Assembly: GCA_943787595.1 (NCBI GenBank)
Contig: CALSNA010000002.1
Coordinates: forward strand, 310,467 to 374,466
DNA: 64,000 nt
Direction: 5' to 3'
DNA from: an uncultured Pseudomonadales bacterium
GTDB taxonomy: Bacteria > Pseudomonadota > Gammaproteobacteria > Pseudomonadales > Balneatricaceae
Both the position numbers and the translations under genes were made by a program. Under the pieces are notes generated by a model, which made no database searches, was not told the origin of the DNA, and saw only the letters and a program-made list of their open reading frames with translations. Shown here piece by piece: positions 21,754 through 36,429 of this stretch (position 1 is its first letter; every line of letters begins with the position of its first letter).

Positions 21754-21809
21754 AGAATAATTGCAGTTTTTTCAAAGACTGCCTTATTTAAAGTATGCTT
21801 TCAGTCTAT

Positions 21810-22356
21810 TACTGAATAGCAAACCGGGATATGGCGGGGCACCCATACAATATCCGCCCTTCTAAATCCAGAGCATCCCGATATTCTATCTTGCAGATCA
21901 CCACCAGTACTTCCAGAATAGAGATGTTGGTAATTAGGAAATGCCCAATATAAGGGAGCACATCGGCCTCCAGTGAGATCCAGACCCTTTGGACATGACC
22001 CTGGCTCCAGCAGCACTATTTATGCTGCCAACATTCTCTGGTCTGATGCCAGAAGGAATTTTCAGCAGTGCGTCTGGTAATATGATGTTACTTTATCTCT
22101 GCGGGATCTCTGCGGAGTCCAGCTGATTGCTCAGGTTGAGCCGGGCCTGATCTCTTGCAGTTCTGGCCGGAGCCAGTGACACTTCAGGGTACACGCCCAG
22201 AGCCAGGGTTTTTTTCTTGCCAGCAAAGCAGTATTTTAGTCGCCAGTATCGGGAGCAGTTGAGTTGTACCAGCAGGTGCAGGCCAGCGCTATCGGCCAGT
22301 TTATAGGGTTTGTCTTTGGGCCAGGCCTGTTTAACGGTGGTATTGGGCAGTGGCAT
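21810..22356 (-). pseudogene. Truncated, frameshifted P4-type tyrosine integrase (N-terminal part only)
   Basis: ORF 22093-22356 (MPLPNTTVKQAWPKDKPYKLADSAGLHLLVQLNCSRYWRLKYCFAGKKKTLALGVYPEVSL...) is near-identical to the N-terminus of the intact integrase at 34963-36180. DNA homology continues to about 21810 in broken frames. The catalytic C-terminal domain is absent. Confidence 0.85.
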
Positions 22357-22506
22357 TGGGGGTACATTTATGGAGCCATGTTATTCGTACCCCAAATACC
22401 CATGGATGACAATAGACACTAGTGGACAGTAATAAAAGAATATCCAAAAAAAATCCCGTAAAAACGGGACTTTATGGACGATTATGGATGCTACTGGTTT
22501 TTAATT

Positions 22507-22521
22507 TGGTGCCCAAGAGAG
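22507..22521 (-). other. attL-like partial copy of the tRNA-Leu 3' end (left junction of the intact island)
   Basis: TGGTGCCCAAGAGAG here versus TGGTGCCCAGGAGAG at 36343-36357 inside the tRNA (14 of 15). Similarity stops abruptly at 22521/22522. Confidence 0.75.
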
Positions 22522-22582
22522 CACACACAAGTAGATATTAATGTGCTGATTTATATGATTATTTATATTTTAATATAAATTT

Positions 22583-22604
22583 ATACCCCCAAAAATACCC
22601 CCAA
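22583..22604. repeat. ATACCCCCAA direct repeats (candidate integrase arm-type sites, left arm)
   Basis: TTATACCCCCAAAAATACCCCCAATT lies about 60-100 nt inside the left junction. The same motif recurs at 36211-36240 next to int. Confidence 0.5.
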
Positions 22605-22722
22605 TTAATATGGCAATTATAGCTGATGGGATGGTTATTGATGCTTAATCATCCAATTTTATATTATATTTGTTTCACTAAACATGTTTGTAACGATATT
22701 ATTGACCCATCATCATTCATGA

Positions 22723-23895
22723 TTAAGTGTATGGCACTACTTGATGTGAAATTGTAGGCAAATCGCATTGAACATCAGAATCTAACACTACAACTGAAGC
22801 ATATTTTGCTCTTGTTATCCCAACATAAAATTTTGCTCTGGCTTCATCTGTCAGTTTTGACTCCATATCTTTAATCCATTCGACCATAGGCTTGGTCGGG
22901 TATAGTAATACATTATCATATGTTTTACCTTTTGAATCTCCATAAGTAGACACGGGAAAATCATCTTCAACACTTACATTTGAACTCCATCTTAGTTGTG
23001 TTACATCTCTACTCATTAGAAACTTTCTTATATTTTTAGGAGCAATCCTAAATACTCCCTTCTCAACATTCTGATTACCTTGGCATGCGATACAGTCACA
23101 TGGTTCAGTCTTTGGAAAGTTTCCATATATTAAAGAGGAGTAGTTGCATATTACTTTAGGATTTCTATGTGAATACTTTAGTGTTTCTGTATCCACCTCA
23201 CAACTTATTCGTTTACCAAGCTCATTTTCAATGAATTTTTGCACATTACCAGAACCATATTTTTTATATTTTCGTGAGAAATGAGTTTTATACGTTACTT
23301 GTCTAGGATCACCAACAAGTGTTAGCGATATATTTGAACACAGAAGAAGCTTGATAATATCAAGATCATAACCAACCATATCTTGAACTTCATCTATGAA
23401 TATATAGTCATAGATTTTTTCAAGTCTTCTAATTAACTTTTCGTTAGACACCCTATTTACCTCTAACGAAAATATGGAAATTTTATCTGAATATATCTTC
23501 CTATCAGATGTAAAGTAGTATTTTATCGGGTTACTTTTACCCCAGTAAATGGTTTGGCCCTTGCTATTTTCTAGCAGCTTACCCTCTGAATTGAACTTTT
23601 CACCAGACTTATTTTTTACCAAATAAAACCCAATATTCCATTTATGGGTCTCAGGTAATAACTGGCTTTGATATGGACGAACCATATGCCTAAGCAGAAA
23701 CGAAAACCATGTTATAACTTCTATAGTTTCAGGGCAGTATCCTTTCCTATATATTAGCTTTGACCTTATTTCTGCTGCGTTTGATTCTGTAAAGGTCGTA
23801 ATTAACACTGGTTTAGGTGAAAGTTTCAATGCCTCATTTACTAGTGTTGTCGTTTTGCCTGCCCCAGCAGCAGCTATGTATAATTTATTACCCAT
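22723..23895 (-). CDS. gajB: Gabija GajB, UvrD/PcrA-like superfamily-1 helicase
   Basis: From MGNKLYIAAAGAGKTT (Walker A), through YIFIDEVQDMVGYD (Walker B/motif II), to YVGITRAKYASVVV (motif VI). The ATG at 23895 overlaps the gajA stop (ATGGGTAA), indicating translational coupling. The ORF-track start 23955 is an upstream extension. Confidence 0.8.
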   Translation of the reverse strand: MGNKLYIAAAGAGKTTTLVNEALKLSPKPVLITTFTESNAAEIRSKLIYRKGYCPETIEVITWFSFLLRHMVRPYQSQLLPETHKWNIGFYLVKNKSGEKFNSEGKLLENSKGQTIYWGKSNPIKYYFTSDRKIYSDKISIFSLEVNRVSNEKLIRRLEKIYDYIFIDEVQDMVGYDLDIIKLLLCSNISLTLVGDPRQVTYKTHFSRKYKKYGSGNVQKFIENELGKRISCEVDTETLKYSHRNPKVICNYSSLIYGNFPKTEPCDCIACQGNQNVEKGVFRIAPKNIRKFLMSRDVTQLRWSSNVSVEDDFPVSTYGDSKGKTYDNVLLYPTKPMVEWIKDMESKLTDEARAKFYVGITRAKYASVVVLDSDVQCDLPTISHQVVPYT

Positions 23896-25510
23896 TGCAC
23901 CAAGAAATTGCATCAGATATATACTTAGGGTACTTGAAACGAATATTAGATTCAAAAATTTTTAGTGCCCACTTGGTCTTATTATTTTTCATATAATTAG
24001 ATACCCACTTATGTTCTGTATGTTGAGTATCCAAGCCTAATTCTTTAATTAGAATCATAATATCATCCTTATTTGCATTAACAAATTGTGGCTCTAACGT
24101 ATTTAATACATCATTATTGTCTGCACAAATTTTTATACATTCACTGTTTAGGTAGGATTCGTACTTTCTGGCTATATTCTTTTCGTAATTCCCATCATTG
24201 TCAGTGATCACACATACGCTTTTACTTAACTTCTCACCAAGCTCTAAAAAGCGCTTAAAGCTTAAACCAACTGAAATCACATCAATTCCGTTTTCAATGG
24301 GCAAGTTGCCATCATTCGAATCCATATAAGCTCGCTGAAATATAAGCTCATCTGAGGCCCCTTCCAGAAGAACAGCCTTTTCACATAAAATCAGTCTTAA
24401 GGTTTGATAACCAGGGAGCTTTTTGAAGAATTCATAGGTGCTTTCACTTAGAGATGATAGCCTACTGACCTTACAATCATGAAGAAGGCTTAAATTCTCT
24501 AGGCCCAATTTATTAGACACGTAACTACTGTGGGTTGAGATGATTAACTGACGATTCTTACATTTTTTAGATATAAGCTTTATAAGCTGATTCAACTTAC
24601 TATGAGATAAATGATTCTCTGGTTCCTCAAGCAGAACGACATTGGATTCTTTACTTTTCTTATGTTCAAGAGCCAAACAGGTTTTAATTATACATTGTTC
24701 TCCTTTGCCTATTTGATGAAAAGGAACATTATCTAGAAATGTTATCAAGCTTGTTTCCCACGAGTTTTGACTTTCCAAATCAACAGAAATACTTAGTTTT
24801 TTTTTGGTTACCTCAGTTTTTTCAGTAATTTTCTTATTAATACCTTTTATTGAATCGTCATCTAAAAAAATCTGTTTTAATTTGCGATAAGCTCGAGAAA
24901 ATCCAACTTTCTCTTCATCATCAAGTTCATTTTTGATAATTCTAGATATATACACATCTGATCCATTGTTATACTTCGTTGAAGTTGAGTCGATTAGAAC
25001 TGATTTAATCGGTATTGATCGACTAACTACTGTTTCACGATTAAATCCTTTCCAGACTACTTGGTAATACTCCATTGGTATTGTTGTTATATTTTCACCA
25101 CTTTCAATCAAAGCTTCATAAGAACGCTTATATCCTTCATCAAACTCTACAGTTAAAGAAACACCTTCAGCTCCTGTTTTTTTATGATTAAAATTTCCTT
25201 CCAAGTTAACATCTGTACAAGAAGAAAAATATAACTCGATAACAAATCTAGGTAGATCTGGATTTTTTCCAGCATCCAAATCAGTTATGAACTTTTCAAT
25301 AATATCATTATTGAATAAATATTGGTTGAGATTATGCCTTAAATATTTGTTTCCAATCATACCTGTTAAAACAAGATTGATTGCTTCTAAGATCGTTGAT
25401 TTACCTGATTCATTATCTCCAACTAATATATTCACACCTTGTTGAAGTGGAAAAGTAAAGCCCCCTTTGAAGACTTTATAATTTTCAATATATAGCTCTT
25501 CAATAAACAT
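23888..25510 (-). CDS. gajA: Gabija GajA, OLD-family ATP-dependent endonuclease (ABC-ATPase plus Toprim)
   Basis: N-terminal MFIEELYIENYKVF...ILVGDNESGKSTILEAINLVL (Walker A). VVLLEEPENHLSH (Walker B/D-loop). C-terminal Toprim AVLLEGASDELIF ... VCVITDNDGN. An OLD nuclease followed by a UvrD-like helicase is the Gabija (class 2 OLD) architecture. Confidence 0.85.
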   Translation of the reverse strand: MFIEELYIENYKVFKGGFTFPLQQGVNILVGDNESGKSTILEAINLVLTGMIGNKYLRHNLNQYLFNNDIIEKFITDLDAGKNPDLPRFVIELYFSSCTDVNLEGNFNHKKTGAEGVSLTVEFDEGYKRSYEALIESGENITTIPMEYYQVVWKGFNRETVVSRSIPIKSVLIDSTSTKYNNGSDVYISRIIKNELDDEEKVGFSRAYRKLKQIFLDDDSIKGINKKITEKTEVTKKKLSISVDLESQNSWETSLITFLDNVPFHQIGKGEQCIIKTCLALEHKKSKESNVVLLEEPENHLSHSKLNQLIKLISKKCKNRQLIISTHSSYVSNKLGLENLSLLHDCKVSRLSSLSESTYEFFKKLPGYQTLRLILCEKAVLLEGASDELIFQRAYMDSNDGNLPIENGIDVISVGLSFKRFLELGEKLSKSVCVITDNDGNYEKNIARKYESYLNSECIKICADNNDVLNTLEPQFVNANKDDIMILIKELGLDTQHTEHKWVSNYMKNNKTKWALKIFESNIRFKYPKYISDAISWCNG

Positions 25511-25699
25511 AATACTCCTATATTGTCTCTTCGTATCATAACCATTGTGTAGAAAAGGATTCCATCTAAAACACTACTCTTTCCACAATAATTAGGTCCA
25601 ACCAATGTAACGATACACTTAGGTTCATTACCCAAGTGTATCGTTAATTAAAAGCATATTTAATAGCTATTCTTCAGTTTTAGCTCCCTTATTACCAAG

Positions 25700-25863
25700 A
25701 ATTGTAGGGATAACTAATTTAAGTCTTGAGAGAGTCGACGTTTGCGTCCACGGTAGGCATCACGCTACTTGGCTAAAATAATTCCTTTTCTTTGATGTTC
25801 TTTAGTCAGCGCTTGTTCAAATTCAGAAAAATCGCCCATCACGGAAAGCGTTAAATTTGTCAT
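25700..25863 (-). pseudogene. Vestige of a serine recombinase (resolvase/invertase) gene
   Basis: The reverse-strand frame reads (M)TNLTLSVMGDFSEFEQALTKEHQRKGIILAK-stop-RDAYRGRKRRLSQ. This resembles the resolvase helix-E region (..GALAEFER.LI.ER...G...AK..G...GRK..L). There is no catalytic N-terminus. Confidence 0.35.
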
Positions 25864-26079
25864 GAAAGTATCAGGATATAATCTATTATCCCAAAAAAAA
25901 AGTGTCAATAAAGCGAAAGATATATTCTAATCTGAGGAGTTTTGGCAGAATGGCTTGACGTTAATTTGAGATATGCCACATCTTAGTATTAGCTAACCTA
26001 AGTAATCAATATCAAAGCATAAGCCAAAATCAAAGTATGAAAATATGCGTTAAAAGCAATGATGGTTAAGGGCCAGTTC

Positions 26080-26502
26080 TCAGAGTAGCCTGCTTATCGA
26101 ACTAAGTTGGCGAGCGATAATGTTAGGTTTGAATATCCCAACAAGCGTACCAGTAATCTGTTGGTCGATGATGACGTTTTCTATCATGCCAGTGATGTGC
26201 AATATATCGGGTTTGCTGCTTGATTTATAATTGTACCAGGTGCGCCTGCTTATATTTAAATGGGCACAAAACCCAGCTATATGCATAGGTCTGGGCTTAT
26301 TAATGGTTGCTATAGTAATCTTATTTCGATAACAAAAAGCCTTGTGTGCCTGTAGTGGGTTATCTTCAACCCACTCAAAATAGTTAACCGCTGCACTCCA
26401 TAGTTGTTCTGCGCTTTCATACTTCTTTTTTGGACCTGCTGGCATAGTTCTAAGCATCCATAGCTTATTACCTTTTTTAAATGAAGTTGAAGATTTACCC
26501 AT
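26080..26502 (-). CDS. Small terminase subunit-like DNA-packaging protein (P22 gp3-type)
   Basis: KKGNKLWMLRTMPAGPKKKYESAEQLWSAAVNYFEWVEDNPLQAHKAF resembles the N-terminal half of P22 gp3-type TerS as I recall it (KGN.FW...P.KFESPE.LW.A..EYFEWVE.NPL). 140 aa. Confidence 0.6.
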   Translation of the reverse strand: MGKSSTSFKKGNKLWMLRTMPAGPKKKYESAEQLWSAAVNYFEWVEDNPLQAHKAFCYRNKITIATINKPRPMHIAGFCAHLNISRRTWYNYKSSSKPDILHITGMIENVIIDQQITGTLVGIFKPNIIARQLSSISRLL

Positions 26503-26642
26503 ATTGTTAATCCTAAATACATCAGACTAATTTGCTACAAAGCTTTCTCCAATAAAAGCCATACTAAACAAACACTTAAGATTCTAACATAAATATTTTA
26601 ATGTCGGAGGTATTTATCTCAAAGCAGCATATTACCAAATGC

Positions 26643-26668
26643 AAAAAAGAGCCACCAAATAAGCAGCT
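26643..26668 (-). terminator. Candidate intrinsic terminator after the C39 gene
   Basis: The reverse strand reads AGCTGC-TTATTTG-GTGGCT followed by CTTTTTTGC. The stem is 6 bp including two G-U pairs, followed by a T6 run. It lies 33 nt downstream of the C39 stop. The stem is weak. Confidence 0.35.
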
Positions 26669-26700
26669 CAAAGGCTAGGTTTACTAGCTAAGTGTGTTCT

Positions 26701-27318
26701 TTATCTGAGGGCTAGGGGCAATGTTGGCAGACTGCTTACTACAGGAGACTTAAAAAAGTCATTATTTGTGGTTGTATGGCCGTTTGGCACAATCACTAAA
26801 GCCTTCCCTTTTAGCGTATCTTTTACTTGCCATAGCTCATTGAATTGATGAACCGTGAATGTCCTGTTCCCCCACGATGGGTCTGCCAATGAAACGTGTG
26901 TATTGCTGATACCCTTTAGCACTGAAAAATGGTCGTTGTCTCGATATTTGAGGTAGAGCAATGCCGGTATTTTGATCTTCTTCAGGGTGTCAAAATCAAT
27001 GGATAGTCCAACTGCATTAAAGCCAAACTTTGTTGCTGCTTGTTTTAAATCTGAGAATGAAGCCGTATTGTCATTTGCTATTTCGTTAACAATCTTGATT
27101 ATGTCTCTTTCGTAGACTTCAGCACCATAATAGAATCGTAGAATGGTAGCCAAGGCAGCCGAACCGCAAGACTCGTCAAGGTCTTGTTTCTCGATCTTTT
27201 GATCTCTAATTGATTTCCAAGATTGAATAGTATTATGTATGGGCGTAGACGATATTAGGTTGTATGCCTTAATCTGGCTGGATAGCAGTAGTAGTATTAA
27301 AGCGACATATCTAGTCAT
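26701..27318 (-). CDS. Free-standing, signal-peptide-bearing C39-family cysteine peptidase (predicted periplasmic)
   Basis: Sec-type N-terminus MTRYVALILLLLSSQIKA. C39 catalytic motifs: Q-x5-C (KQDLDESCGSAALATILRFYYG), His (NDHFSVLKGI) and Asp (SLADPSWGNRTF). There is no fused or adjacent ABC transporter. Confidence 0.8.
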   Translation of the reverse strand: MTRYVALILLLLSSQIKAYNLISSTPIHNTIQSWKSIRDQKIEKQDLDESCGSAALATILRFYYGAEVYERDIIKIVNEIANDNTASFSDLKQAATKFGFNAVGLSIDFDTLKKIKIPALLYLKYRDNDHFSVLKGISNTHVSLADPSWGNRTFTVHQFNELWQVKDTLKGKALVIVPNGHTTTNNDFFKSPVVSSLPTLPLALR

Positions 27319-27617
27319 TGTTGTTGATCTGGTGGGTAAATTATTGTGTCCATACCAGCAGGGAACATAAATGATAATAAGCCAGGTTTAGTTAATGTCA
27401 CTCCAACTCTTATTGCAGGCGGTTCACCATCATAATGACAATCTGCTACTACCCCACCAATTCCCTCTACCTCATAATCGAATAAACAGTACAGTGATGT
27501 TTTTTCTAAATTTCTTTTCATTTCTGAGTAGGGTATTGATTCAGCTTTTTTTAATGCGTCAGACAATACTTGTCTTTCTTCACTAGTTAGTTTTTCTAAT
27601 CTACTTCCATAACTCAT
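27315..27617 (-). CDS. Hypothetical 100-aa cytoplasmic protein (no recognisable motif)
   Basis: Intact ORF with no signal peptide or TM segment. Its stop overlaps the C39 start (ATGA, 27315-27318), indicating translational coupling. Confidence 0.6.
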   Translation of the reverse strand: MSYGSRLEKLTSEERQVLSDALKKAESIPYSEMKRNLEKTSLYCLFDYEVEGIGGVVADCHYDGEPPAIRVGVTLTKPGLLSFMFPAGMDTIIYPPDQQQ

Positions 27618-27637
27618 AGCATCAATCTATATTAATT

Positions 27638-27675
27638 ATTGCCGACCTATATCCATTCTAATATAAATCGGCAAT
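27638..27675 (-). other. Hairpin directly after the 115-aa gene (possible attenuator or RNA-stabilising stem)
   Basis: ATTGCCGA (27638-27645) and TCGGCAAT (27668-27675) form an 8-bp perfect inverted repeat with a 22-nt loop. It starts 8 nt after the stop at 27683. No T-run follows. Confidence 0.35.
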
Positions 27676-27682
27676 GTAAGTT

Positions 27683-28030
27683 TTACCTCCAGAGCGCTAT
27701 ACGGCGATGTCGTTGTGATCCCTTTACACCTACTCTATAAGTAGTTAGCTGGAGATGTGTTCTTCTACCTTGAAGCAGCCCACTTGTAAAGTTATGGTGT
27801 GCAGAATGATAACCAAAAACGTAACCACGACTACCAAATCTAAAATGTCGATTCCAGTAGTCGCCCTTGGTGCTATCCATTTCTTGAGGCGTTAGCAGCT
27901 CAATCTGGCTTATATCGGCAGAACTACCGAAGGCATAAGCTAGACTATCATTGGCACTATTGGCCATTGCCGCATGACTGCCAAACACAGTCATTAGCAT
28001 GGTTAATAGTACAATTTTAATGTGTTTCAT
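27683..28030 (-). CDS. Sec-exported 115-aa protein: signal peptide, acidic pro-region with a double-glycine-leader-like motif, and a highly basic, aromatic 58-59-aa C-terminal part
   Basis: MKHIKIVLLTMLMTVFGSHAAMA / NSANDSLAYAFGSSADISQIELLTPQEMDSTKGD / YWNRHFRFGSRGYVFGYHSAHHNFTSGLLQGRRTHLQLTTYRVGVKGSQRHRRIALWR. I recognise no family. Confidence 0.65.
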   Translation of the reverse strand: MKHIKIVLLTMLMTVFGSHAAMANSANDSLAYAFGSSADISQIELLTPQEMDSTKGDYWNRHFRFGSRGYVFGYHSAHHNFTSGLLQGRRTHLQLTTYRVGVKGSQRHRRIALWR

Positions 28031-28101
28031 AATTGAAGATCCTTTATAATATCTCTCGATTAATTTGGTGTTAATCTATGTTTTTATGAGTTAATCACCT
28101 C

Positions 28102-28746
28102 CTATGGGTTTAGCTTGTGAAGCCATTTCAGACTGATGTTAGAACCTGTATAGTCGCTAATATCGGTCTGAACCTTTAAATTCAATGTCCTTTCTTCGCT
28201 CACTGAATAAACTATGCCCAGCTCTAGTTGTGTCTGTGATGCGCGAGTGCTATTTTCACTGGATTGAATGAAGTTAAGATTTAAGCCAGCACTTAGGCTA
28301 ATTTCATTGTTCACAGCAAAGCCAAGGGCTGGATTGATAAACCATAAGTCATTAGTGGTTGATCTTTGAATGCCTGTTGTAGTCGATAACACTATGGGAT
28401 CACTACTTAGATAAGCTGTTAAGCCGACCATCTTAGTTTTTGTTTTGGATAGCTCCGCAAATCCCAGTAAGGCAGTTGTGTTACTACCAGAGAATAACTT
28501 GCTGTTGATTCCAATAGTTGCATTGTCTCCATTGGTGGCACGTGCATACGCTTCCGTATTGTTCGTTAGTCCATAGCGTATACCTAGAGCCTGACTCGTA
28601 TTGTTCGCGCTGTAAGCGTTAAAATAGTCCGCACTCAGCTCTATAGTTAAATCATTCTTATCAGGTAGAACATCTATTTCCAAGGGTAAATCGGCCATAG
28701 CATGGCTTGATATAGCCAGTAGTAAAATATACCTAAGTTTTCTCAT
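28102..28746 (-). CDS. Small outer-membrane beta-barrel protein (about 12 predicted strands)
   Basis: Signal peptide MRKLRYILLLAISSHAMA. Repeated alternating-hydrophobic strands follow (LTIELSADYFNAY, ALGIRYGLT, TALLGFAELS, MVGLTAYLS, LWFINPALGFAV, ISLSAGLNLNFI, QLELGIVYSV, LNLKVQTDIS, ISLKWLHKL). Confidence 0.65.
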   Translation of the reverse strand: MRKLRYILLLAISSHAMADLPLEIDVLPDKNDLTIELSADYFNAYSANNTSQALGIRYGLTNNTEAYARATNGDNATIGINSKLFSGSNTTALLGFAELSKTKTKMVGLTAYLSSDPIVLSTTTGIQRSTTNDLWFINPALGFAVNNEISLSAGLNLNFIQSSENSTRASQTQLELGIVYSVSEERTLNLKVQTDISDYTGSNISLKWLHKLNP

Positions 28747-29324
28747 AGGTCACTTTGTCTTGTTGTGTTCTTGTTTTAAAGAAGATACTTACTTCAGCAA
28801 TCCATTGATCCAGGTTTGTGAAGTCATGGCCTCCACCCTGAATACTGATATGTTCGCAATTCGAGTAATAGCCAATTACATCTCGAATAATTAAGCTCGT
28901 CTCCAGTCTGCGCCAGTACCAGTATATTTTGTGGCTTGTTGATCTCTATTGCTTCCGACTCTAGAGACTTGAGCTGTTTAACAGCATGGGGTAAGCCCCA
29001 CTCTGACGGCAATTTACCTAATCCGTTAAGTACGTCTCCCTGCTTTAGAATGGGGCTTTCACTGGGAAACACTGATGGATTAAGCAATACAACCGGAATA
29101 TTCAACTTTTGAGATAGTATAGTCGCATAGAAGCCACCTAATGAATGGCCCACTAGTGCAACACGATCCCCCATATCCTTAATGCGTCCTTTTATGCAGT
29201 CCATAGCATGAAAGGGCATGACAGGGACGCGCATCACCTCAGCTCCCAGGGAGTCAATTAATAAATTTCCTTTTCTACCGTTTGGCCGACCCAGGAAGCC
29301 ATGAAGGTACAATATCTTAATCAT
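28733..29324 (-). pseudogene. YqiA-like alpha/beta-fold serine hydrolase (UPF0227), reading frame broken near 28890
   Basis: MIKILYLHGF ... VALVGHSLGGFYAT (nucleophile elbow) ... LAQTGDEL. In the +1 frame it continues IIRDVIGYYSNCEHISIQGGGHDFTNLDQWI (catalytic His). This is colinear with E. coli YqiA (QQTGDEVLDYRQAVAYY...GGNHAF). The listed ORF 28824-29405 ends prematurely, before the His. The restored frame ends at 28733, overlapping the next gene start by 14 nt. Confidence 0.65.
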
Positions 29325-29506
29325 GGGAATGACCCCCACGACTAAACATTGTAAAGATGATGTTTGTTGATGGTGCATGACTGCAACAAAACCTAGCCGT
29401 TGCAATCAGCAAATTGATATACTCGCTGATAGCCATATCTGATGTCCAATATCAGTGTTTGGTTAGGGTCAGGCAAAAGTTAGCGGCTTTTGCTTGGCCT
29501 GTTTTC

Positions 29507-29535
29507 GTTATACGTTGTTCTATTTGCTTTGTCAA
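29507..29535 (-). promoter_or_regulatory. Near-consensus sigma70 promoter facing the five-gene module
   Basis: The reverse strand reads TTGACA (29535-29530), a 17-nt spacer, then TATAAC (29512-29507). It lies about 175 nt upstream of the YqiA-like ATG. A 7-bp hairpin (GCAAAAG/CTTTTGC, 29473-29493) lies in the predicted leader. Confidence 0.45.
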
Positions 29536-29791
29536 TAAATTATGTATGGGTCTCCACAAGCCCCAGGATAGCCTTCAGGCGATTTTTTATAATGCAGCCA
29601 TACTAAAAATTAAGGTAATAGCCTTTTAACTTTCCCGTAAACTACCCGTCCTTCAGAGCCATTAATAGACTCGTTTTGTAAGCTAAACCTACCCCCAACC
29701 TTCCCCCTAATTTTAGTTTTACGCTAACGCTTCGTTAAATTGTGATCGATGTGTAAATACCCCGCTATTAACACAGTCTCGAGGTAGAGAG

Positions 29792-30619
29792 TTAAGCCAC
29801 ATTTAGGTACTCAATGGGTGTCATATCATTAAGCCCGTCATGTGGTCGTTCGTGGTTGTATAACTGTATCCAGTCATCCGTGATTTGCCTGACCTCATCG
29901 AGGTTGCTGAACAGATATAAATCCAATACATCTTCTCGGTAAGTGCGATTCAATCGCTCAACATAACCATTTTGGTAAGGCTTACCGGGCTTGATAAAAT
30001 CAATGTATATATGGTGATGCTCAGCCCAGGCAGCTAACTCATGCGCGGTAAACTCAGGCCCATTGTCACAACGTATGCGCTCTGGATAACCTCGCCATGC
30101 TGCAATCTGATCCAGGTAGCGAGTGACTCGGTCAGCTGTGATGCCAGAGTTAATATCGATACCTAACACTTCTCGATTAAAGTCATCCATAACATTAAAG
30201 GTTCTAAAGCGATGGCCGTGTTGCAGTACATCACTCATAAAATCCATTGACCAACACACATTTAAAGTCGGTGGCACATTCAACGCCAGCGGGTGTCGAC
30301 TGGGTAAACGCCGCTTGGCTTTTCTTCTCATATTGAGCTTAAGCTGCAAATACACGCGATAAATACGTTTGTGGTTCCAGTGATGACCTAAAGTTCGTAA
30401 TCGCTTGCGACACTTCGGAAAACCCCAACGAGGATGTGTATCCACCAGGGCCAGCAGTGTATCAATCAGTTCAGTATCATCACAGCGTATGGGCTGATAG
30501 TAATAAGCTGTACGACTCAAAGCCGCTGCCTGACAACACAGCACAATGCTGGCAGCAAATTGCTCACGTAGCTGATCAACCCAGGCGCGACGATCCGCTG
30601 CTGACCTTACAGCTTTTTT
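29792..30619 (-). CDS. IS3-family transposase OrfB (DDE integrase domain), expressed by -1 frameshift from orfA
   Basis: THPRWGFPKCRKRL ... WSMDFMSD ... DNGPEFTAHELAAWAEHHHIYIDFIKPGKPYQNGYVERLNRTYRE, the DDE/rve motifs. The frame is open upstream to the slippery AAAAAAG at 30613-30619. Confidence 0.85.
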   Translation of the reverse strand, partial: KKAVRSAADRRAWVDQLREQFAASIVLCCQAAALSRTAYYYQPIRCDDTELIDTLLALVDTHPRWGFPKCRKRLRTLGHHWNHKRIYRVYLQLKLNMRRKAKRRLPSRHPLALNVPPTLNVCWSMDFMSDVLQHGHRFRTFNVMDDFNREVLGIDINSGITADRVTRYLDQIAAWRGYPERIRCDNGPEFTAHELAAWAEHHHIYIDFIKPGKPYQNGYVERLNRTYREDVLDLYLFSNLDEVRQITDDWIQLYNHERPHDGLNDMTPIEYLNVA

Positions 30620-30867
30620 ATAATGTCCTCTTGCATTTGGCTTTTTAAGCTCAAGTCAGCATACATCTGCTTTAGACGGCGGTTCTCGTCTTCCAGCTCT
30701 TTAAGTCGTTTAACATCCGAGGCTTCCATACCACCGTACTTACTTCGCCATTTATAGAATGTGCTGTTACCAATGCTGTACTTGCGGCACAGTTCTGGGA
30801 TTGGCGTACCCACCTCAGCTTCCTTCAATATCCCGACAATCTGGGTTTCGTTCAGTCGTTTGCTCAT
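30607..30867 (-). CDS. IS3-family transposase OrfA (HTH)
   Basis: MSKRLNETQIVGILKEAEVGTPIPELCRKYSIGNSTFYKWRSKYGGMEASDVKRLKELEDENRRLKQMYADLSL is the classical IS3 OrfA. It ends IIKKL-stop across the A6G heptamer. Confidence 0.9.
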   Translation of the reverse strand: MSKRLNETQIVGILKEAEVGTPIPELCRKYSIGNSTFYKWRSKYGGMEASDVKRLKELEDENRRLKQMYADLSLKSQMQEDIIKKL

Positions 30868-30939
30868 CGTAAAAACTCCTTCGCATCGTTCGCGATTATA
30901 GTATTTTCTACGTTTGAGCTGTGCTAGTTTAGGGGGTAC

Positions 30940-31422
30940 TTACAGATGCAATTTATCATGCAACTCTTCAGCTAGATAACTTTTCACAAAAGGTAACTCA
31001 ACCCCAGAACCATAAGCGTTTAAAAAAAGTGTTGTGTACCCGAAAAAACGTCCGATTGGACTTTTAATCAATTCTACGTTTTCAATATTGTTTAAGATTA
31101 GGGTATCAATTCTCTGAGTCAAAATACCACTTTGCACTTTTACAGATTCTTCGCTTATCCAAATTTTTACAAAAAATGGCTCAAAAATCGTATGTAGGTC
31201 TTTAAGAACATAGATCGCAGGAAGCACAACTAAACTTAGCAGAGTATCTTTTTGAAAATTCGTACCCACAACTTCTGTACCAATGTACTCAAACACGACA
31301 TAAACAATAACTAAACCTAATAATCGGCATAATATCTCGATTATTGCTTCAATAAACGGAGCCAATTTTACAACCTCAAGTTTTTTCAATTCCAAGTAAA
31401 CTCCCATTCGTTTATCTTCCAT
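30940..31422 (-). CDS. Membrane-anchored bacterial PH-domain (bPH_2 / YdbS-YdbT-like) protein, 3' end altered by the IS insertion
   Basis: Two N-terminal TM helices, then WISEESVKVQSGILTQRIDTLILNNIENVELIKSPIGRFFGYTTLFLNAYG. This matches the bPH_2 pattern (.G.l.r....ipl..I.nve...s...r..G.g.l.i). The stop codon (30941-30943) lies inside the IS terminal repeat. Confidence 0.65.
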   Translation of the reverse strand: MEDKRMGVYLELKKLEVVKLAPFIEAIIEILCRLLGLVIVYVVFEYIGTEVVGTNFQKDTLLSLVVLPAIYVLKDLHTIFEPFFVKIWISEESVKVQSGILTQRIDTLILNNIENVELIKSPIGRFFGYTTLFLNAYGSGVELPFVKSYLAEELHDKLHL

Positions 31423-31447
31423 TTTTTACTTTCTGCTTTTCTACACT

Positions 31448-31492
31448 GAGAGATAGGAGAGATAGGAGAGATAGGAGAGATAGGAGAGATAG
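31448..31492. repeat. Five perfect tandem copies of the 9-mer GAGAGATAG (iterons)
   Basis: Read directly: GAGAGATAG x5 with no spacers, at 31448-31492. This lies between the DUF3987-like gene stop and the bPH gene start. Confidence 0.9.
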
Positions 31493-31672
31493 TAGTATTA
31501 ACAAGGCTTGTAAACCTCTCCACAAATGTCGACATAAGAGAGATATGATTTTACCAATTAGTTATCTCGCCAATAATCTCGCCATAATATCTCTTGCTAC
31601 AGGCTAGGTAAATAAAGCTTTATCGCTATATCGCCTATCTCGCTATAGTTAAGTGTGGTTTGTTATCTCTCA
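31448..31672. other. Putative satellite replication origin (opposed iteron sets flanking an A/T-rich spacer)
   Basis: Besides the 5x array there is a degenerate copy AGAGAGATATG (about 31527-31537). Inverted copies are TTATCTCGC (31562), AATCTCGC (31575), ATATCTCT (31588), CTATCTCGC (31635) and TTATCTCTC (31664). It lies immediately 3' of the replication genes. Confidence 0.5.
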
Positions 31673-32939
31673 GAGTATAAATTGTTGGTCGCCTGCCACC
31701 ATTCTTACTTTCACCCTGTGACTGGTTGATCTTGGGCGGTGTGCTTTCTAGCAGTAGCTTTAAGGCGCATTTAATGTCTTTCCCCCCCTTTCTGTTAAAG
31801 AGGTCAACAATATCATTCTGTGTGCATTGTCCCTTGTCTGATATTAGATTATGTATTCTATCTGCCATTTCATTATGTTTCTTAAATTCTGCTTCCTGTT
31901 CACCAGTTGAAAATATATAGCCGATTGAAGCCCACCAGTAATGAATAATATGCAATGCAGCATTAAGATGGTTAATACTGATTTCCTTTTTCCTCTCCAT
32001 TATGGCGAAAAGCATTGATACCATTAACAAATATTTTGTTGTTCTAGTTAAAAGCTGCTTTTTCTTTTCTGTGCCTTTGGGTTCTCTAAATTTTTCATAC
32101 AAATTATCAAATTTATTTTTAAAACAATCCTTAAATATCATTACTGGCTCTTTATTAACAAATCTCATTATTTCTTCAAGCTCATCAACTAAACCATCCT
32201 TAATATTATTCGGTGTGCGCTTGGGTCTGGGTACATATTTATCAAGCTTCATATTGCAAATCATAAACCGATTTAAAAAACCATTGGCCATATCAACCGA
32301 TTTCACCCTGTTTAATAATTCTGTTTTTGTAACATGCCCCATCATAACCAAGTGAGGTCTAGTGCATTTAAACTGATCGTTCTTGGTTGTATTGTCCAAA
32401 TCTTCACCATCATGCAAGTTCCTTAAAATAGATGATAATGTGGAGCCTTCGCGGTTACATGCTGTTAGCACCTTCGCAAATTCAGAGTCGATTGTTAGAA
32501 CTCTTTTATCTTTGTTCCCTACGTCATAGTCCCTCAATACCTGCATAAGCCCTTCACCACTATTGAGTCCGTTACTGATTCTTTTGGGGTTATCACCAGT
32601 CTTCTTGCTGTACATCTTAAATATGGCTTTAACAAGCGTCTCTGATGTTCCCTTACCTGAACCAGTATTACCCACAAGCAAAAATGAAGGTCTAGCATCT
32701 ATATCATAGTTACCCCAATGGCAAGTTATCCTCTCCCTGCCAGTATAAGCAGAAAGATACGCTAATACGTTAAGTGTAACGGCTATCTCTGATGCCTCAG
32801 AGTTGGTACAAGCTGCATTTACCATGTCTTGCAAAAATGAAGGTAAGCCTTTGTCCTTAAATATACCTGGTTCTAACTCAGGTGGTGCTTTCACTGTGTC
32901 TAGCTCAGTATCAAAGTCGTTTTGAGTATTGTTAGTCAT
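31635..32939 (-). CDS. DUF3987-like P-loop NTPase (satellite/P4-alpha-type replication helicase candidate)
   Basis: 434 aa with Walker A LLVGNTGSGKGTS. It overlaps the upstream primase zinc-ribbon gene by 4 nt. This position and size are typical of DUF3987 proteins in P4-like and PICI elements. The family call is from context and memory. Confidence 0.6.
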   Translation of the reverse strand: MTNNTQNDFDTELDTVKAPPELEPGIFKDKGLPSFLQDMVNAACTNSEASEIAVTLNVLAYLSAYTGRERITCHWGNYDIDARPSFLLVGNTGSGKGTSETLVKAIFKMYSKKTGDNPKRISNGLNSGEGLMQVLRDYDVGNKDKRVLTIDSEFAKVLTACNREGSTLSSILRNLHDGEDLDNTTKNDQFKCTRPHLVMMGHVTKTELLNRVKSVDMANGFLNRFMICNMKLDKYVPRPKRTPNNIKDGLVDELEEIMRFVNKEPVMIFKDCFKNKFDNLYEKFREPKGTEKKKQLLTRTTKYLLMVSMLFAIMERKKEISINHLNAALHIIHYWWASIGYIFSTGEQEAEFKKHNEMADRIHNLISDKGQCTQNDIVDLFNRKGGKDIKCALKLLLESTPPKINQSQGESKNGGRRPTIYTLRDNKPHLTIAR

Positions 32940-33445
32940 TTGTTAATGTCACATTGCAAACTACGTTCTTGTCGGCTTCCGCTTATATTCTTCCCATTGA
33001 TACCGTATGCGTTCATAAAGTTATTTTTGATTAACTGATCTCTAATCTCGTTTGATCTGAAACCAGCTTGTATAGCTCTTAGTCTTTGCTTTTGCTGTAT
33101 AGGTTGAAAACTACTTACCCTGCTTTGGTAAATAGCTATTATGGTTTGTTCTTGCTGTAGCTCTTTAGATAGCCTCCTAGCATCCCACACTGACATAACA
33201 GGCTTCTTGGCGGTTTGCTTAGGTTCTGGCTTTTGTGGGAACAGGCAGCGCATATTGAGGCCCACGGCGTTAGTAATTTCCCTTGCTGTACAACCAGCCC
33301 AACACTTTAATAGAACGCGCCCATCATCCAGCTCAGTGATAGCTAGACTGGCATTTCGATCTTGATGTGAAGGACAACACGCTAACCAGTTCGCTAATTT
33401 AGTGGACTTTACTTGCTTGAGCCTTTGCAAAATATCATTAATCAT
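32936..33445 (-). CDS. Primase-type zinc-ribbon protein (P4 alpha N-terminal-like; no catalytic primase domain seen)
   Basis: WLACCPSHQDRNASLAITELDDGRVLLKCWAGCTAREITNAVGL matches the CP.H.D..PSL.I......L..C.AGC pattern of primase zinc-binding domains. ATG at 33445; the ORF track starts at GTG 33457. Confidence 0.65.
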   Translation of the reverse strand: MINDILQRLKQVKSTKLANWLACCPSHQDRNASLAITELDDGRVLLKCWAGCTAREITNAVGLNMRCLFPQKPEPKQTAKKPVMSVWDARRLSKELQQEQTIIAIYQSRVSSFQPIQQKQRLRAIQAGFRSNEIRDQLIKNNFMNAYGINGKNISGSRQERSLQCDINK

Positions 33446-33554
33446 ATAAACCGCCACGGGAGATTGCTTGTAAGCCTGAATAATTACCTAGGCTTTGAGT
33501 CCTAATCAAAACGACACTAGCTTCACCATAACCAATATTCGGCAGTAAGCTTTT

Positions 33555-33815
33555 TCATGTCTGGGAATCTTGTGTGGTGACAATAGGCCTGGATGACCGA
33601 ATACGTTGTTCAATCCAGTTATTGATTTCCGATTCCAGCCAACCGCTGGCCCGGGGTCCAAGCTTTATCGGTGCCGGAAATTGATTCCGGGCAATGAGCT
33701 GGTGAGCGTGGGAGCGACAAATCCCGACGCGCTTTTGCACATCGGGCCAACGTAAAATACTGTCGATGGTCGTAGAATCTTGATGGGGTGTTTGTGTATG
33801 AACGTGGGTAGTCAT
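33555..33815 (-). CDS. alpA: AlpA-family (prophage CP4-57-type) transcriptional regulator / excisionase
   Basis: ILRWPDVQKRVGICRSHAHQLIARNQFPAPIKLGPRASGWLESEINNWIEQR is the canonical AlpA/MerR-like HTH signature. Confidence 0.85.
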   Translation of the reverse strand: MTTHVHTQTPHQDSTTIDSILRWPDVQKRVGICRSHAHQLIARNQFPAPIKLGPRASGWLESEINNWIEQRIRSSRPIVTTQDSQT

Positions 33816-33969
33816 GTTTCATTCTCTTTAGACATCTTTATTAGATATACAATGTCATAAAGGAATGGCCTTAAATAGGTAGGCAGGTTCAATATACTTA
33901 CAGGGGAATTGGAGCAAATGGGTGTAGGTTTGCCTAACCTATGGGAATTGGCAGTAATTAGGGGTTAGG

Positions 33970-34902
33970 TTATCTTGAACCTGGTGTTTTTGGCGCACCT
34001 CCTGTTGGATTCCAGTTAGCCACTTTTGCTATTTCGTTGATGGCTGTGTTACTTGGCTGACCGTCACCTTTAGTTAATCCATATTGTTCAGCATGATCTC
34101 TAAGCCAGCACTCAAGATTATGTTTAACTGATTTACCTTTATCCTGATATTTTTCATCCGAAGTAACCGCCAGCCATGCATTAACAGCCGCAGCTAACTT
34201 GGGGGCATAATGAGGCGACTGCTTGTTCAGATATGAAGGCGTGGGTTGCCTTGAGTGTTCTTTTGGCAAGGCATTACCTTGCACATCTGACTCCAGCCAT
34301 TTTTGCAGCTCTGCTATTCTATCTGACCGGATAAAAATATCTGCAACCAGTGGGGTAATGTTTGTGATCTGTAATTGCTCTTGCACTTTAGTGATAGCAT
34401 CAATGTCGGTCATGTCGGTTGTTAGATTTTCATCAACCGCTGTATTATCAGTTGATTGACATATTTGATAAGCTTCACCTTGAATAAAAACACGGTCAAT
34501 TGGACCAATTTTCCTGTCGAGAAAACTTAAATCCTTCGATAACTCTGCCAGAATTGGGCTAATATTAGTCCATGGAATAATGCTTTTTTGCGTATCATGG
34601 ATGTGATTCACATGATTGGCAGGTAACATGTCTCCCTCAATGACATTCGTTATGGTCATCACGGATTGTGGATATAACTTGTTGTTGGGTAAATCAGCAA
34701 AACCATTGAAAGGTTTTACGGTGTTTTTATCTAAAGTCCTGTTTGCATTGAGTTTACAAATATAGGTATGTTGTAGTTGGATGGAAACACTCAGGCTACC
34801 ACGGCCTGTATAGGCTAAAAGTTTATCAAGAGGAATATTCCAGCCTAGGCGATTAAATGACTTAACAATGCCGGATAGAGGTTCGTATTTGCTTGAGTTC
34901 AT
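33970..34902 (-). CDS. Hypothetical 310-aa protein between int and alpA
   Basis: Intact ORF on the same strand as the island genes. I recognise no motif. Confidence 0.5.
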   Translation of the reverse strand: MNSSKYEPLSGIVKSFNRLGWNIPLDKLLAYTGRGSLSVSIQLQHTYICKLNANRTLDKNTVKPFNGFADLPNNKLYPQSVMTITNVIEGDMLPANHVNHIHDTQKSIIPWTNISPILAELSKDLSFLDRKIGPIDRVFIQGEAYQICQSTDNTAVDENLTTDMTDIDAITKVQEQLQITNITPLVADIFIRSDRIAELQKWLESDVQGNALPKEHSRQPTPSYLNKQSPHYAPKLAAAVNAWLAVTSDEKYQDKGKSVKHNLECWLRDHAEQYGLTKGDGQPSNTAINEIAKVANWNPTGGAPKTPGSR

Positions 34903-34962
34903 AATATTATTCTGTTGATTGGTAAAATCGACTATTGTAAATGGGTGATGTAGTCAATCATT

Positions 34963-36180
34963 CTAGTGGCCGGGATTTAACTGATTGCCAGCTAATTTAG
35001 TGCTGTATTCCAGTTGTTCCAGATAGTCCGCCCACCACTGCATCATGGTGGCCCGGTCTTTCAGGTACTCCGCATGCTGGGTGTAGGCTCCACGCACCTG
35101 ATTGCGCTCCAGATGGGATAACTGGCGCTCAATGGCATCCGGATTAAAGCCTTCTTCATTCAGGATGGAGGATGCCGTGGTTCTAAACCCATGAGCAGTA
35201 GCCCGGCTCTTATACCCCATACGATACAGGGCATAGGTCATGGTATTCTCCGATATGGGTTTCAATCGACTTCGCTCCCCGGGAAATAACAGGGCATACT
35301 GGCCCGATATGGGCTTCAGTGCCACCAGTATGTCCATCGCCTGTTGGGATAAGGGCACCAGATGCTCAGTGCCCATCTTCATCCGTTCACCTGGAATGCG
35401 CCAAAGTCTGGCCTCCAAATCAAATTCGTGCCACTGGGCAAAGCGACACTCCCCGGGTCGCACAAACGTCAGCAACAGCAAGCGCAGGGCCAGCCGGGTG
35501 ACTTGATGGCCGTCGTAATGACGCAGTTGTTTCAGGAATTGCGGCAGCTCGGCTCTGGGTAATGCTGCACGGTGCTGTTTCTTTCTGGTTTTTAATACGC
35601 CCGTTAGTTCTGTGGCCGGGTTATAGCTGGCCCGTCCAGACTGAATGGCAAACCGGAATATGGCGGTACACCGCTGCAATATCCGCCCCGCCACATCCAG
35701 AGCATCCCGGTGTTCTATCTTGCGGATCACCGCCAGTACTTCTGGAGTGGTGATGTCGGTAATGGGGCGATGCCCCATGTAAGGGAGCACATCTGTTTCC
35801 AGTGAGGTCCAGACCCGCTGGGCATGGTCTTGACTCCAGCGGCCATGTTGATGCTGCCACCATTCCCTGGCCTGATGCTGGAAGGAATGTTCAGCATTGC
35901 GTCGGGCGGTATGCTTTTGCTGCTTTTTTATCTCTGAGGGGTCTACCTGATTGCTCAGGTTGAGCCTGGCCTGATCTCTTGCGGTTCTGGCCCGGGCCAG
36001 TGACACTTCAGGGTAAACCCCCAGGGCCAGGGTTTTTTCCTTGCCGGCAAAGCGGTATTTAAACCGCCAGTATCGGGAGCCGTTGGGGTGTACCAGCAGG
36101 TGCAGGCCGGCACTGTCGGCCAGTTTATAGGGTTTATCTTTGGGGCGGGCCTGTTTAACGGTGGTGTTGGTCAGTGGCAT
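34963..36180 (-). CDS. int: P4-type tyrosine integrase (DUF4102 arm-binding domain plus phage integrase catalytic domain)
   Basis: N-terminal KDKPYKLADSAGLHLLVHPNGSRYWRFKYRFAGKEKTLALGVYPEVSLARAR. Catalytic residues are in LLLLTFVRPGECR, HGFRTTASS and VRGAYTQ. It is adjacent to a tRNA gene. Confidence 0.92.
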   Translation of the reverse strand: MPLTNTTVKQARPKDKPYKLADSAGLHLLVHPNGSRYWRFKYRFAGKEKTLALGVYPEVSLARARTARDQARLNLSNQVDPSEIKKQQKHTARRNAEHSFQHQAREWWQHQHGRWSQDHAQRVWTSLETDVLPYMGHRPITDITTPEVLAVIRKIEHRDALDVAGRILQRCTAIFRFAIQSGRASYNPATELTGVLKTRKKQHRAALPRAELPQFLKQLRHYDGHQVTRLALRLLLLTFVRPGECRFAQWHEFDLEARLWRIPGERMKMGTEHLVPLSQQAMDILVALKPISGQYALLFPGERSRLKPISENTMTYALYRMGYKSRATAHGFRTTASSILNEEGFNPDAIERQLSHLERNQVRGAYTQHAEYLKDRATMMQWWADYLEQLEYSTKLAGNQLNPGH

Positions 36181-36210
36181 TGGGGGTACATTGATGAAGC
36201 CATGTTATTT

Positions 36211-36240
36211 GTACCCCAAATATACCCCCAAATACCCCCG
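36211..36240. repeat. (G/A)TACCCC(C)AAA direct repeats next to int (candidate arm-type sites, right arm)
   Basis: GTACCCCAAATATACCCCCAAATACCCCCG lies between the int start and the tRNA. The motif is shared with 22583-22604 and, degenerate, 22391-22410. Confidence 0.5.
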
Positions 36241-36342
36241 GATGGCAATAGACATGAATGGACAGTAATAAACGAACATCCAAAAAAAATCCCGCAAAAA
36301 CGGGATCTTATAGACGATTATGGATGTTACTGGTTGTTAGTT

Positions 36343-36429
36343 TGGTGCCCAGGAGAGGACTTGAACCTCCACGGCCTTGCGGCCACTAGCACCTGAAGCT
36401 AGCGTGTCTACCAATTTCACCACCTAGGC
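36343..36429 (-). tRNA. tRNA-Leu (anticodon CAG)
   Basis: The reverse complement is GCCTAGGTGGTGAAATTGGTAGACACGCTAGCTTCAGGTGCTAGTGGCCGCAAGGCCGTGGAGGTTCAAGTCCTCTCCTGGGCACCA. It folds as a cloverleaf with a long variable arm, anticodon loop TTCAGGT and encoded CCA. Confidence 0.92.

Follow-up and report, generated by a model that had tools for sequence, protein, structure and literature searches.

In the genome of an uncultured bacterium of the Pseudomonadales (GTDB lineage Bacteria; Pseudomonadota; Gammaproteobacteria; Pseudomonadales; Balneatricaceae), an island of 13.8 kb lies directly 3' of a tRNA-Leu(CAG) gene, and the question that it raises is what kind of mobile element it represents and from what it was built. 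The island occupies about positions 22525-36342 of the window, i.e. the whole 64,000-nucleotide stretch analysed here (assembly GCA_943787595.1, contig CALSNA010000002.1, positions 310,467 to 374,466 of the forward strand), in a 2.3-Mb genome. An earlier assessment made from the letters alone (the sequence-only reading) described it as a phage satellite resembling P4 or the phage-inducible chromosomal islands (PICIs), with genes for an integrase (int), an orphan protein, AlpA, a replication module, cargo and a small terminase (TerS). What that reading missed is that about half of the island, comprising its replicase, its replication origin and a cargo module with a C39 peptidase, is plasmid backbone. 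The best explanation is that such a backbone became an element that integrates at a tRNA gene and brings its own TerS, that would be mobilised by a pac-type helper phage and that carries a Gabija system as defence cargo, a reading for which the case and the counter-case are about evenly balanced.

The plasmid relationship carries this reading. The closest homologue of the island's DUF3987 protein (79% amino acid identity) is encoded on two metagenomic contigs, L005, which is 8,715 bp long with a 77-bp terminal overlap, and L006, which is 8,638 bp long and identical but circularly permuted; the overlap and the permutation together imply an 8,638-bp circle. Around the circle run genes for a resolvase, a 47-amino-acid (aa) open reading frame (ORF), a 170-aa zinc-ribbon protein, the DUF3987 protein, a 291-aa protein, ParA, a 74-aa protein and a UPF0227 hydrolase, and then for 214-, 115- and 101-aa proteins, a C39 peptidase and a 65-aa ORF. 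By this predicted gene content, the circle is a small resolvase/ParA plasmid. Three stretches of the window match it, with order and orientation conserved:

Window 33457-31466 against L006 1082-3087, 85% DNA identity
Window 29706-29634 against L006 4109-4181, 89% DNA identity
Window 29519-26614 against L006 5375-8283, 88% DNA identity

At the protein level, identities between island and plasmid are 79-92% (79% for the zinc-ribbon and DUF3987 proteins, 82-92% for the cargo module), and the iteron field has been conserved in both, as three tandem copies in the plasmid and as five in the island. The shared genes have ratios of non-synonymous to synonymous substitution (dN/dS) of 0.08-0.27 at dS 0.35-0.69, and hence the replicase and the cargo are under purifying selection in both versions; selection is strong within the five-gene cargo module (dN/dS 0.08-0.21; genes at 26701-29405 of the window and 5555-8195 of L006). 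Inside the collinear block, the island differs in having a bPH_2 gene for the 291-aa gene, an IS3 insertion and a frameshift in the UPF0227 gene, and in having lost ParA and its small partner. A second member of the plasmid type, contig L030 from a marine metagenome (53% amino acid identity), has the plasmid layout C39 peptidase, resolvase, two small ORFs, DUF3987 and UPF0227. L005, L006 and L030 represent an undescribed family of small circular plasmids that lacks a close relative in PLSDB; searches of PLSDB and a phage database with the replicase returned only remote actinobacterial matches and no close relative.

Both the 8.6-kb plasmid and L030 resemble the island in the zinc-ribbon/DUF3987 replicase, the origin with its iterons and the UPF0227/214/115/100/C39 module, the order of which is unchanged throughout. 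Unlike the island, however, the plasmid is extrachromosomal, has the resolvase, ParA and the small partner, and lacks an integrase, AlpA, TerS and Gabija. The island is chromosomal, has its ParA gene deleted and retains only a fragment of a resolvase, so that it stands outside the plasmid family and has in common with it the replicon and cargo alone. In the arc from the C39 peptidase to the replicase, the plasmid has the 65-aa ORF, the resolvase and the 47-aa ORF; if the island were closed into a circle, TerS, the resolvase fragment, GajA, GajB, attP, int, the 310-aa gene and alpA would fall in this arc, the fragment lying where the plasmid has its resolvase. The features of the locus, read from the tRNA gene to the far end, are as follows:

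36343-36429, minus strand: tRNA-Leu(CAG), the integration target, whose last 18 nt (36343-36360) are the tRNA-proximal attachment (att) core
36181-36342, minus strand: int-proximal attP arm, with the tRNA terminator hairpin (36286-36309), ATACCCCCAA at 36222-36231 and inverted GTACCCCCAA at 36180-36189
34963-36180, minus strand: P4-type tyrosine integrase, 405 aa, apparently intact, with HGFR and RGAY motifs and Arm-DNA-bind_3, Phage_int_M and Phage_integrase domains
33970-34902, minus strand: 310-aa protein without assigned function, whose C-terminal ~100 aa are a widespread unnamed family
33555-33815, minus strand: AlpA-family excisionase/activator, 86 aa (PF05930, 2.4e-15; phrog_2790)
32936-33457, minus strand: zinc-ribbon (CHC2-like) protein, ~170 aa, first gene of the plasmid-derived block, 79% identical in amino acids to the plasmid's 170-aa protein
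31635-32939, minus strand: DUF3987 P-loop replicase/helicase-like protein, 434 aa (PF13148; C-terminal parts of PHROG helicases/primases), 79% identical in amino acids to plasmid protein P0002
31448-31634, no strand: probable replication origin, with five tandem 9-bp iterons (31448-31495) and degenerate inverted copies
30940-31422, minus strand: bPH_2 membrane protein (PF03703, 7.6e-10), which replaces the plasmid's 291-aa gene and has its last ~9 codons clipped by the IS3 element
29752-30944, minus strand: IS3-family insertion sequence (orfA, orfB), with imperfect terminal inverted repeats and a 4-bp target duplication, CATC
26614-29519, minus strand: five-gene plasmid cargo module, i.e. UPF0227 hydrolase (frameshifted), 214-aa outer-membrane-like protein, 115-aa protein, 100-aa protein and periplasmic C39 peptidase
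26080-26502, minus strand: lone small terminase of the P22 gp3 family, 140 aa (PF16677, GP3_package, 3.5e-21; phrog_606, 7e-34)
25720-25926, minus strand: pseudogene fragment of a serine recombinase (resolvase), truncated at both ends and interrupted by a stop codon, between TerS and GajA
23888-25510, minus strand: GajA (ATPase and OLD-type TOPRIM nuclease; PADLOC PDLC00102, 2e-204, full length)
22723-23913, minus strand: GajB (UvrD-like helicase, short form, ~396 aa; PADLOC PDLC00148, 1e-118; gene call in L026)
22507-22610, no strand: distal island end, with an imperfect copy of the tRNA 3' end (22507-22524, 16/18) and exact ATACCCCCAA at 22583-22592 and 22595-22604
21592-22506, minus strand: older related island remnant, outside the present island, with a tRNA-side spacer and terminator copy, the 5' half of an integrase gene (~21780-22356) and a C39 fragment (21595-21708)

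The resolvase fragment bears on the direction of change. It is 32% identical to residues 89-154 of the L006 resolvase (tblastn) and may be a relic of the resolvase of the ancestral plasmid or else of the vehicle that delivered Gabija. As the plasmids have an intact resolvase and the island no more than a fragment of one, the plasmid state would appear to be ancestral; with only 32% identity between the fragment and the L006 protein, the direction of the change between plasmid and island stays an inference.

The tRNA gene is on the minus strand (ARAGORN; Rfam RF00005, 51 bits), as are all sizeable ORFs between 22723 and 36180, in keeping with the single orientation noted before. The sequence-only reading had bounded the element by the tRNA 3' end and a 14/15 copy of it; that copy (22507-22521) is present, and the match extends to 16/18 when 22507-22524 is compared with 36343-36360. 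Written in the orientation of the tRNA, the sequence is GTCCTCTCCTGGGCACCA followed by AACTAACAACC at the proximal junction and GTGCTCTCTTGGGCACCA followed by AATTAAAAACC at the distal one, both ends keeping an identical 11-bp core, TGGGCACCAAA. The 10-mer ATACCCCCAA occurs exactly at 22583 and 22595, just within the far end, and at 36222 in the int-side arm, and inverted near-copies lie at the start of the integrase gene and at the equivalent place in the remnant; if up to one mismatch is tolerated, the count is 12 against an expected 4.7, and 0 of 100 shuffles reach 12. These repeats resemble arm-type sites for an integrase, placed on both arms of a single attP, and their clustering on both predicted arms gives the distal boundary independent support. 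In the nearest relatives, which are outside the genus (flank protein about 52% identical), the synteny of the right flank is kept and ends exactly at the tRNA, neither tRNA-Leu nor the left flank being found there. Scans for promoters and terminators gave nothing above shuffled expectation.

The far repeat proved to be more than the lone repeat that had been described: it is the tip of a duplication of ~715 bp in which 21811-22524 is collinear with 35640-36360 at 80-89% identity. Within the duplication lie the hairpin of the tRNA terminator, the spacer and ~190 codons from the start of an integrase gene that now has many stops and frameshifts. A decayed second integrase thus lies beyond the far end, which is where an older tandem element is expected, and the locus is therefore a case of tandem accretion at the tRNA, an older related island having been displaced by a newer integration and then mostly deleted. 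The boundaries as first called are correct, being reinforced both by this remnant and by the ATACCCCCAA repeats. Traces of the same family occur elsewhere in the genome. On contig C3 (225011-225574), the decayed 5' end of a same-family integrase lies behind tRNA-Leu(GAG) at 78% DNA identity; at tRNA-Leu(CAA) on contig C4 (426053-426233) there is 77% DNA identity over 183 bp, mainly in the tRNA gene itself; and C4 also holds an intact integrase paralogue with its own AlpA. The integrase traces indicate that at least two tRNA-Leu genes of this genome have been visited by the island family. The locus also records that elements of one family have come to tRNA-Leu genes more than once in this small (2.3-Mb) genome. 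Fragments of the C39 peptidase gene are also scattered, i.e. at 21595-21708 beside the integrase remnant (44% amino acid identity, opposite strand), at C4:6352-6764 (90% DNA identity) and at C5:441808-442010 (79% DNA identity), a distribution which suggests that the plasmid cargo module has entered and decayed repeatedly.

What, then, would have been joined to the plasmid backbone? The integration arm consists of int, the 310-aa gene and alpA, and the calls for int and alpA stood up to profile searches in Pfam, PHROG and NCBIfam, the integrase matching three Pfam integrase domains at E values of 1e-20 to 1e-32 and NCBIfam PRK09692 at 3e-89. The 310-aa protein was rightly called an orphan, as sequence searches gave no match in Pfam, PHROG, NCBIfam or the PDB. 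Its C-terminal domain has >250 homologues, mostly of 200-250 aa, across many phyla, which brings to notice an unnamed but widespread family located between int and alpA. On contig L033 (8001-8702), a homologue of the 310-aa protein lies between a P4-type int and AlpA and is followed by a Toprim/DnaB-type replicase; given this arrangement with a different replicase, the int/X/alpA arm (X being the gene between the other two) recurs as a unit that is combined with different replicons. The GC content of the island is itself a mosaic, with 0.55 for int, 0.51 for alpA, 0.38-0.42 for the replicase, 0.40 for TerS and 0.32-0.34 for Gabija, as compared to 0.44 for the genome.

The replication module is that of the plasmid. 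As had been read from the sequence, it encodes a DUF3987-like P-loop protein (PF13148 at 5.6e-10 and 39 bits, above the curated cut-off) and has iterons, i.e. five perfect copies of GAGAGATAG at 31448-31495. The 'primase zinc-ribbon' fared less well: a CHC2-type zinc ribbon is there, albeit below the Pfam cut-off (19.5 bits) and matching only positions 4-81 of the 772 in phrog_6088, but neither Pfam nor PHROG finds a Toprim or catalytic primase domain in the protein. Sequence searches of the PDB with the replicase and the zinc-ribbon protein returned nothing meaningful.

The cargo of the island is real and includes a complete Gabija pair, although what had been counted as cargo also takes in the IS3 element, the frameshifted hydrolase gene and the resolvase pseudogene fragment. 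GajA and GajB are adjacent and cover their PADLOC profiles at near full length; as in other Gabija systems, an OLD-family ATPase-TOPRIM nuclease adjoins a UvrD-like helicase, whereas the GajB of about 396 aa marks the predicted system of the island as a compact subtype. The IS3 element is the sole copy of its type in the genome and shares 67% DNA identity with the genome's multicopy insertion sequence. Compared with the intact copy in the plasmid, the UPF0227 (YqiA-like) hydrolase gene (28736-29339) has a frameshift near residue 160. For the C39 peptidase, the best NCBIfam matches, both below cut-off, are FapD (amyloid fibril maturation) and FilB (a pilus system), which hints that the module might belong to a secreted system of the fibre or amyloid type and not to a bacteriocin exporter.

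The assignment of TerS to the P22 gp3 family was upheld by the Pfam and PHROG profiles, and the protein shows 40-42% identity to the gp3 TerS of phages, with the N-terminal and core regions common to both. It has no paralogue in the genome, and its 141-aa homologue, 68% identical, has the same short length. The statement that no capsid, tail or lysis genes are present likewise agrees with the searches made here: Pfam and PHROG gave no capsid, portal, tail, lysis or large terminase (TerL) match in the island interval, and tblastn found no fragments of a P22-type TerL or portal in the window. Thus, the element contains no structural genes, and the profiles sustain both TerS and AlpA.

Known satellites provide the yardstick for classification. 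The SatelliteFinder model lists five core functions for a PICI, namely an integrase, an alpA/merR/stl regulator, a primase-replicase, a gene for capsid morphogenesis and TerS, forbids genes for tail, holin, portal and connector proteins, and assigns elements with four of the five functions to Type B (PMC10085698), for which a capsid-morphogenesis gene is dispensable (PMC10085698). A lone TerS adjoining int, AlpA and a replicase is a recognised PICI signature (PMC6092414, PMC10085698). Judged on Pfam and PHROG matches rather than on SatelliteFinder's own profiles, the island has four of the five functions, which corresponds to Type B, and none of the forbidden genes: it has an integrase (three domains) with a specific att site (16/18 tRNA repeat and arm repeats at both ends), a regulator of the alpA type (PF05930; phrog_2790), TerS, and a primase-replicase with origin made up of the zinc-ribbon protein, the DUF3987 protein and five iterons, but without a catalytic primase domain. 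Like the Gram-negative PICIs with their own TerS (PMC6092414, PMC10085698), it reads int, accessory gene, alpA, replication, ori, accessory genes, terS and cargo on one strand, falls within ~10-15 kb, uses a specific att site, lacks structural and lysis genes and carries its defence cargo distally. In contrast to them, it has no capsid-morphogenesis gene, its replicase is split into zinc-ribbon and DUF3987 proteins with nearest relatives on plasmids, eight genes (the plasmid module and the IS included) lie between ori and terS, and the host is neither an enterobacterium (Enterobacteriaceae) nor a member of the Pasteurellaceae. By its gene content, a PICI-type reading is reasonable.

The P4-like half of the original label did not hold, while gene content (four of five functions) and size fit the PICI-type half. 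The island shares with P4 and P4-like elements a P4-type integrase at tRNA-Leu, an AlpA-family regulator and the presence of a P2-like prophage in the genome, and the replicon of P4 can also exist as a plasmid, a likeness to the plasmid-type replicon seen here. However, PHROG and Pfam found no homologues of Sid, Psu, Delta or Epsilon among the island ORFs, there is no fusion like the Toprim primase-helicase P4 alpha, no cos-like sequence is shared with the P2-like prophage, and the island has a pac-type TerS where P4 is without one; a P4-like satellite was rejected on these grounds. Two other classes were set aside as well, cfPICIs because the island has no capsid, portal, TerL or connector genes of its own, and PICMIs because of its integration in tRNA-Leu, its 13.8 kb and its TerS. 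The integration site of PICMIs is beside fis, their size is about 6 kb and they have no terS (PMC10803314). As elements of marine vibrios (PMC10803314), PICMIs resemble the island in being small and marine-type and in having int, alpA, a primase-family replicase and defence cargo; plasmid-like replication after excision is a PICMI trait that the island might share.

Beyond the plasmids, the replicase has more distant relatives. Searches of genome contigs found none when started from the single DUF3987 protein and 15 distant loci when started from an alignment. Genomes of Cycloclasticus, Methylococcaceae, Rhodocyclaceae and others contain islands arranged as int, X, AlpA, (Toprim), DUF3987, the DUF3987 proteins being 31-36% identical; some of these islands have Toprim_3 where the present one has the zinc-ribbon protein. 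In L007, a Terminase_2 TerS stands right behind the replicase, with CBASS-like (SMODS) and type I restriction-modification cargo after it; L015 has an HK97 capsid gene in its DUF3987 island, and capsid-protease fusions in DUF3987 islands account for three matches to phrog_4523. Downstream of the replicase, capsid or capsid-protease fusion genes are located at 8122-11011 in L011, 14576-16213 in L035, 12754-14565 in L045 and 12505-13872 in L015. Methylococcales-type and other Gammaproteobacteria may thus harbour a lineage of satellites that encode capsids, and the wider island context lends support to the view that the present island, too, is a satellite.

Under the preferred reading, a small iteron plasmid would have gained a P4-type integrase/AlpA module, a TerS of the P22 gp3 type and a Gabija pair. 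Int would keep the island in the 3' end of tRNA-Leu(CAG), the tRNA being regenerated upon integration, and a signal, which by analogy with Gram-negative PICIs could be an infecting or induced helper phage, would cause AlpA to turn on excision. The excised circle would then replicate from the iteron origin via the zinc-ribbon and DUF3987 proteins, i.e. with the replicon of the 8.6-kb plasmid, and the island's TerS would steer the TerL and the headful packaging of the helper to island DNA, which could thereby spread in phage particles. Gabija would meanwhile guard host and island against other phages.

A helper of this kind was looked for in the genome itself. The only complete prophage, located by a Terminase_6N search at ~396,000-422,000 of contig C1 (L023, L024), is P2-like, with genes for TerL, portal, scaffold, major capsid, a gpM-type TerS, tape measure, baseplate, a large primase and an integrase. 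The same search led to a second resident element at ~9,500-17,000 of contig C5 (L025), the small remnant of a phage or cfPICI-like element, with an integrase fragment, a TerS fragment (phrog_51), a 428-aa TerL (phrog_3717) and a head-tail adaptor-like protein. Neither of these resident elements has a gp3-type TerS, both carrying unrelated TerS types, and a search of the genome with the HK97 capsid Pfam gave no match.

Several results weigh against a phage-mobilised element. No helper with a matching terminase was found in the genome, where a P22 gp2 query detected no P22-type TerL; the island and the P2-like prophage have nothing longer than 14 nt in common, and as these are only chance 13-14-mers, there is no P4-style cos relationship. 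The TerS is without the linker of ~20-30 residues that its phage homologues have before the C-terminal tail, which explains why it is shorter than they are, and gp3-type TerS is rare in the order (2 of 301 genomes). No capsid-morphogenesis or size-redirection gene was seen in the island ORFs by Pfam or PHROG. A degenerate 36-nt att pattern covering attL, attR, attP and attB had 0 matches in metagenomes, so that neither excision nor an empty site was seen there. Signs of decay are evident in the IS3 insertion, the frameshifted hydrolase, the deleted partition module and the resolvase fragment. Furthermore, the replicase has its closest relatives on plasmids that lack both TerS and int, from which it follows that the backbone needs no phage, and the two contigs that define the closest plasmid, L005 and L006, may stem from one data set.

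The alternative that survives best, though it too is rather unlikely, is a phage-independent integrated plasmid or integrative defence island, in which int/AlpA allows a small plasmid to reside in the chromosome, to leave it again and to replicate, and in which a captured TerS has no role, or an incidental one, in transfer. Much of what was just listed is what such an element would look like, i.e. the nearest replicase relatives (79% and 53% amino acid identity) on resolvase/ParA plasmids without TerS, a plasmid backbone collinear over half of the island, and a genome without a compatible helper, TerL or cos/pac match; in addition, TerS lies outside the plasmid-homologous block, beside the resolvase fragment and the low-GC Gabija genes, and hence may be a separate cargo insertion. 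Yet the TerS is intact, its short form is conserved in the 68% homologue, and its company of int, AlpA and replicase is the PICI signature cited above. Related DUF3987 islands carry TerS or capsid genes, and profile searches of the island turned up no relaxase or oriT-type function that could give it another route of transfer.

It is improbable that the island is fixed and decaying, immobile and kept for the benefit that Gabija, and perhaps the C39 module, gives to the host. Although the IS3 element, the UPF0227 frameshift, the lost partition module, the resolvase pseudogene and the two mismatches between the att copies would all suit such an island, as would the clearly decayed state of the older family copies in the genome, int, alpA, the zinc-ribbon gene, the DUF3987 gene, the iterons and terS are open and full-length, the IS insertion is clean and recent and costs only ~9 codons of an accessory gene, and the 11-bp core is identical at both ends. 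The junction between the distal island end and the remnant recurs at 99.8% identity in the environmental contig L026, which fits fixation and demonstrates no more than the stability of the integrated arrangement in nature. As an alternative context for a near-identical TerS, L026 was rejected, as it has the same island-plus-remnant arrangement. Lastly, a P22-like prophage remnant with only TerS and the integrase left can be dismissed as highly improbable, for despite a TerS 40-42% identical to gp3 of P22-like phages, tblastn and profiles revealed no TerL, portal, capsid, tail or lysis fragments in the window, the replication module is of plasmid/satellite type and only 13.8 kb is enclosed.

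To return to the preferred reading, its fullest form is that the island is a working phage satellite, recently derived from a non-transmissible plasmid by the addition of int/AlpA and TerS, and this is advanced tentatively, as a possibility that falls somewhat short of probable. PICI-like islands with defence systems are already well known, and as first described the island was an ordinary one; what is added here is its close, collinear kinship with a free circular plasmid. If the reading is true, one replicon with its cargo exists in two lifestyles, as a resolvase/ParA plasmid and as a tRNA-integrating, TerS-bearing defence satellite, and the pair would document a plasmid-to-satellite transition, i.e. 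one route by which new satellite families originate. The plasmid and the island form a natural pair that is suited to testing which modules make an element phage-mobilisable, and together they suggest that plasmid replicons can be made into satellites by the addition of an integrase/AlpA arm and a small terminase.

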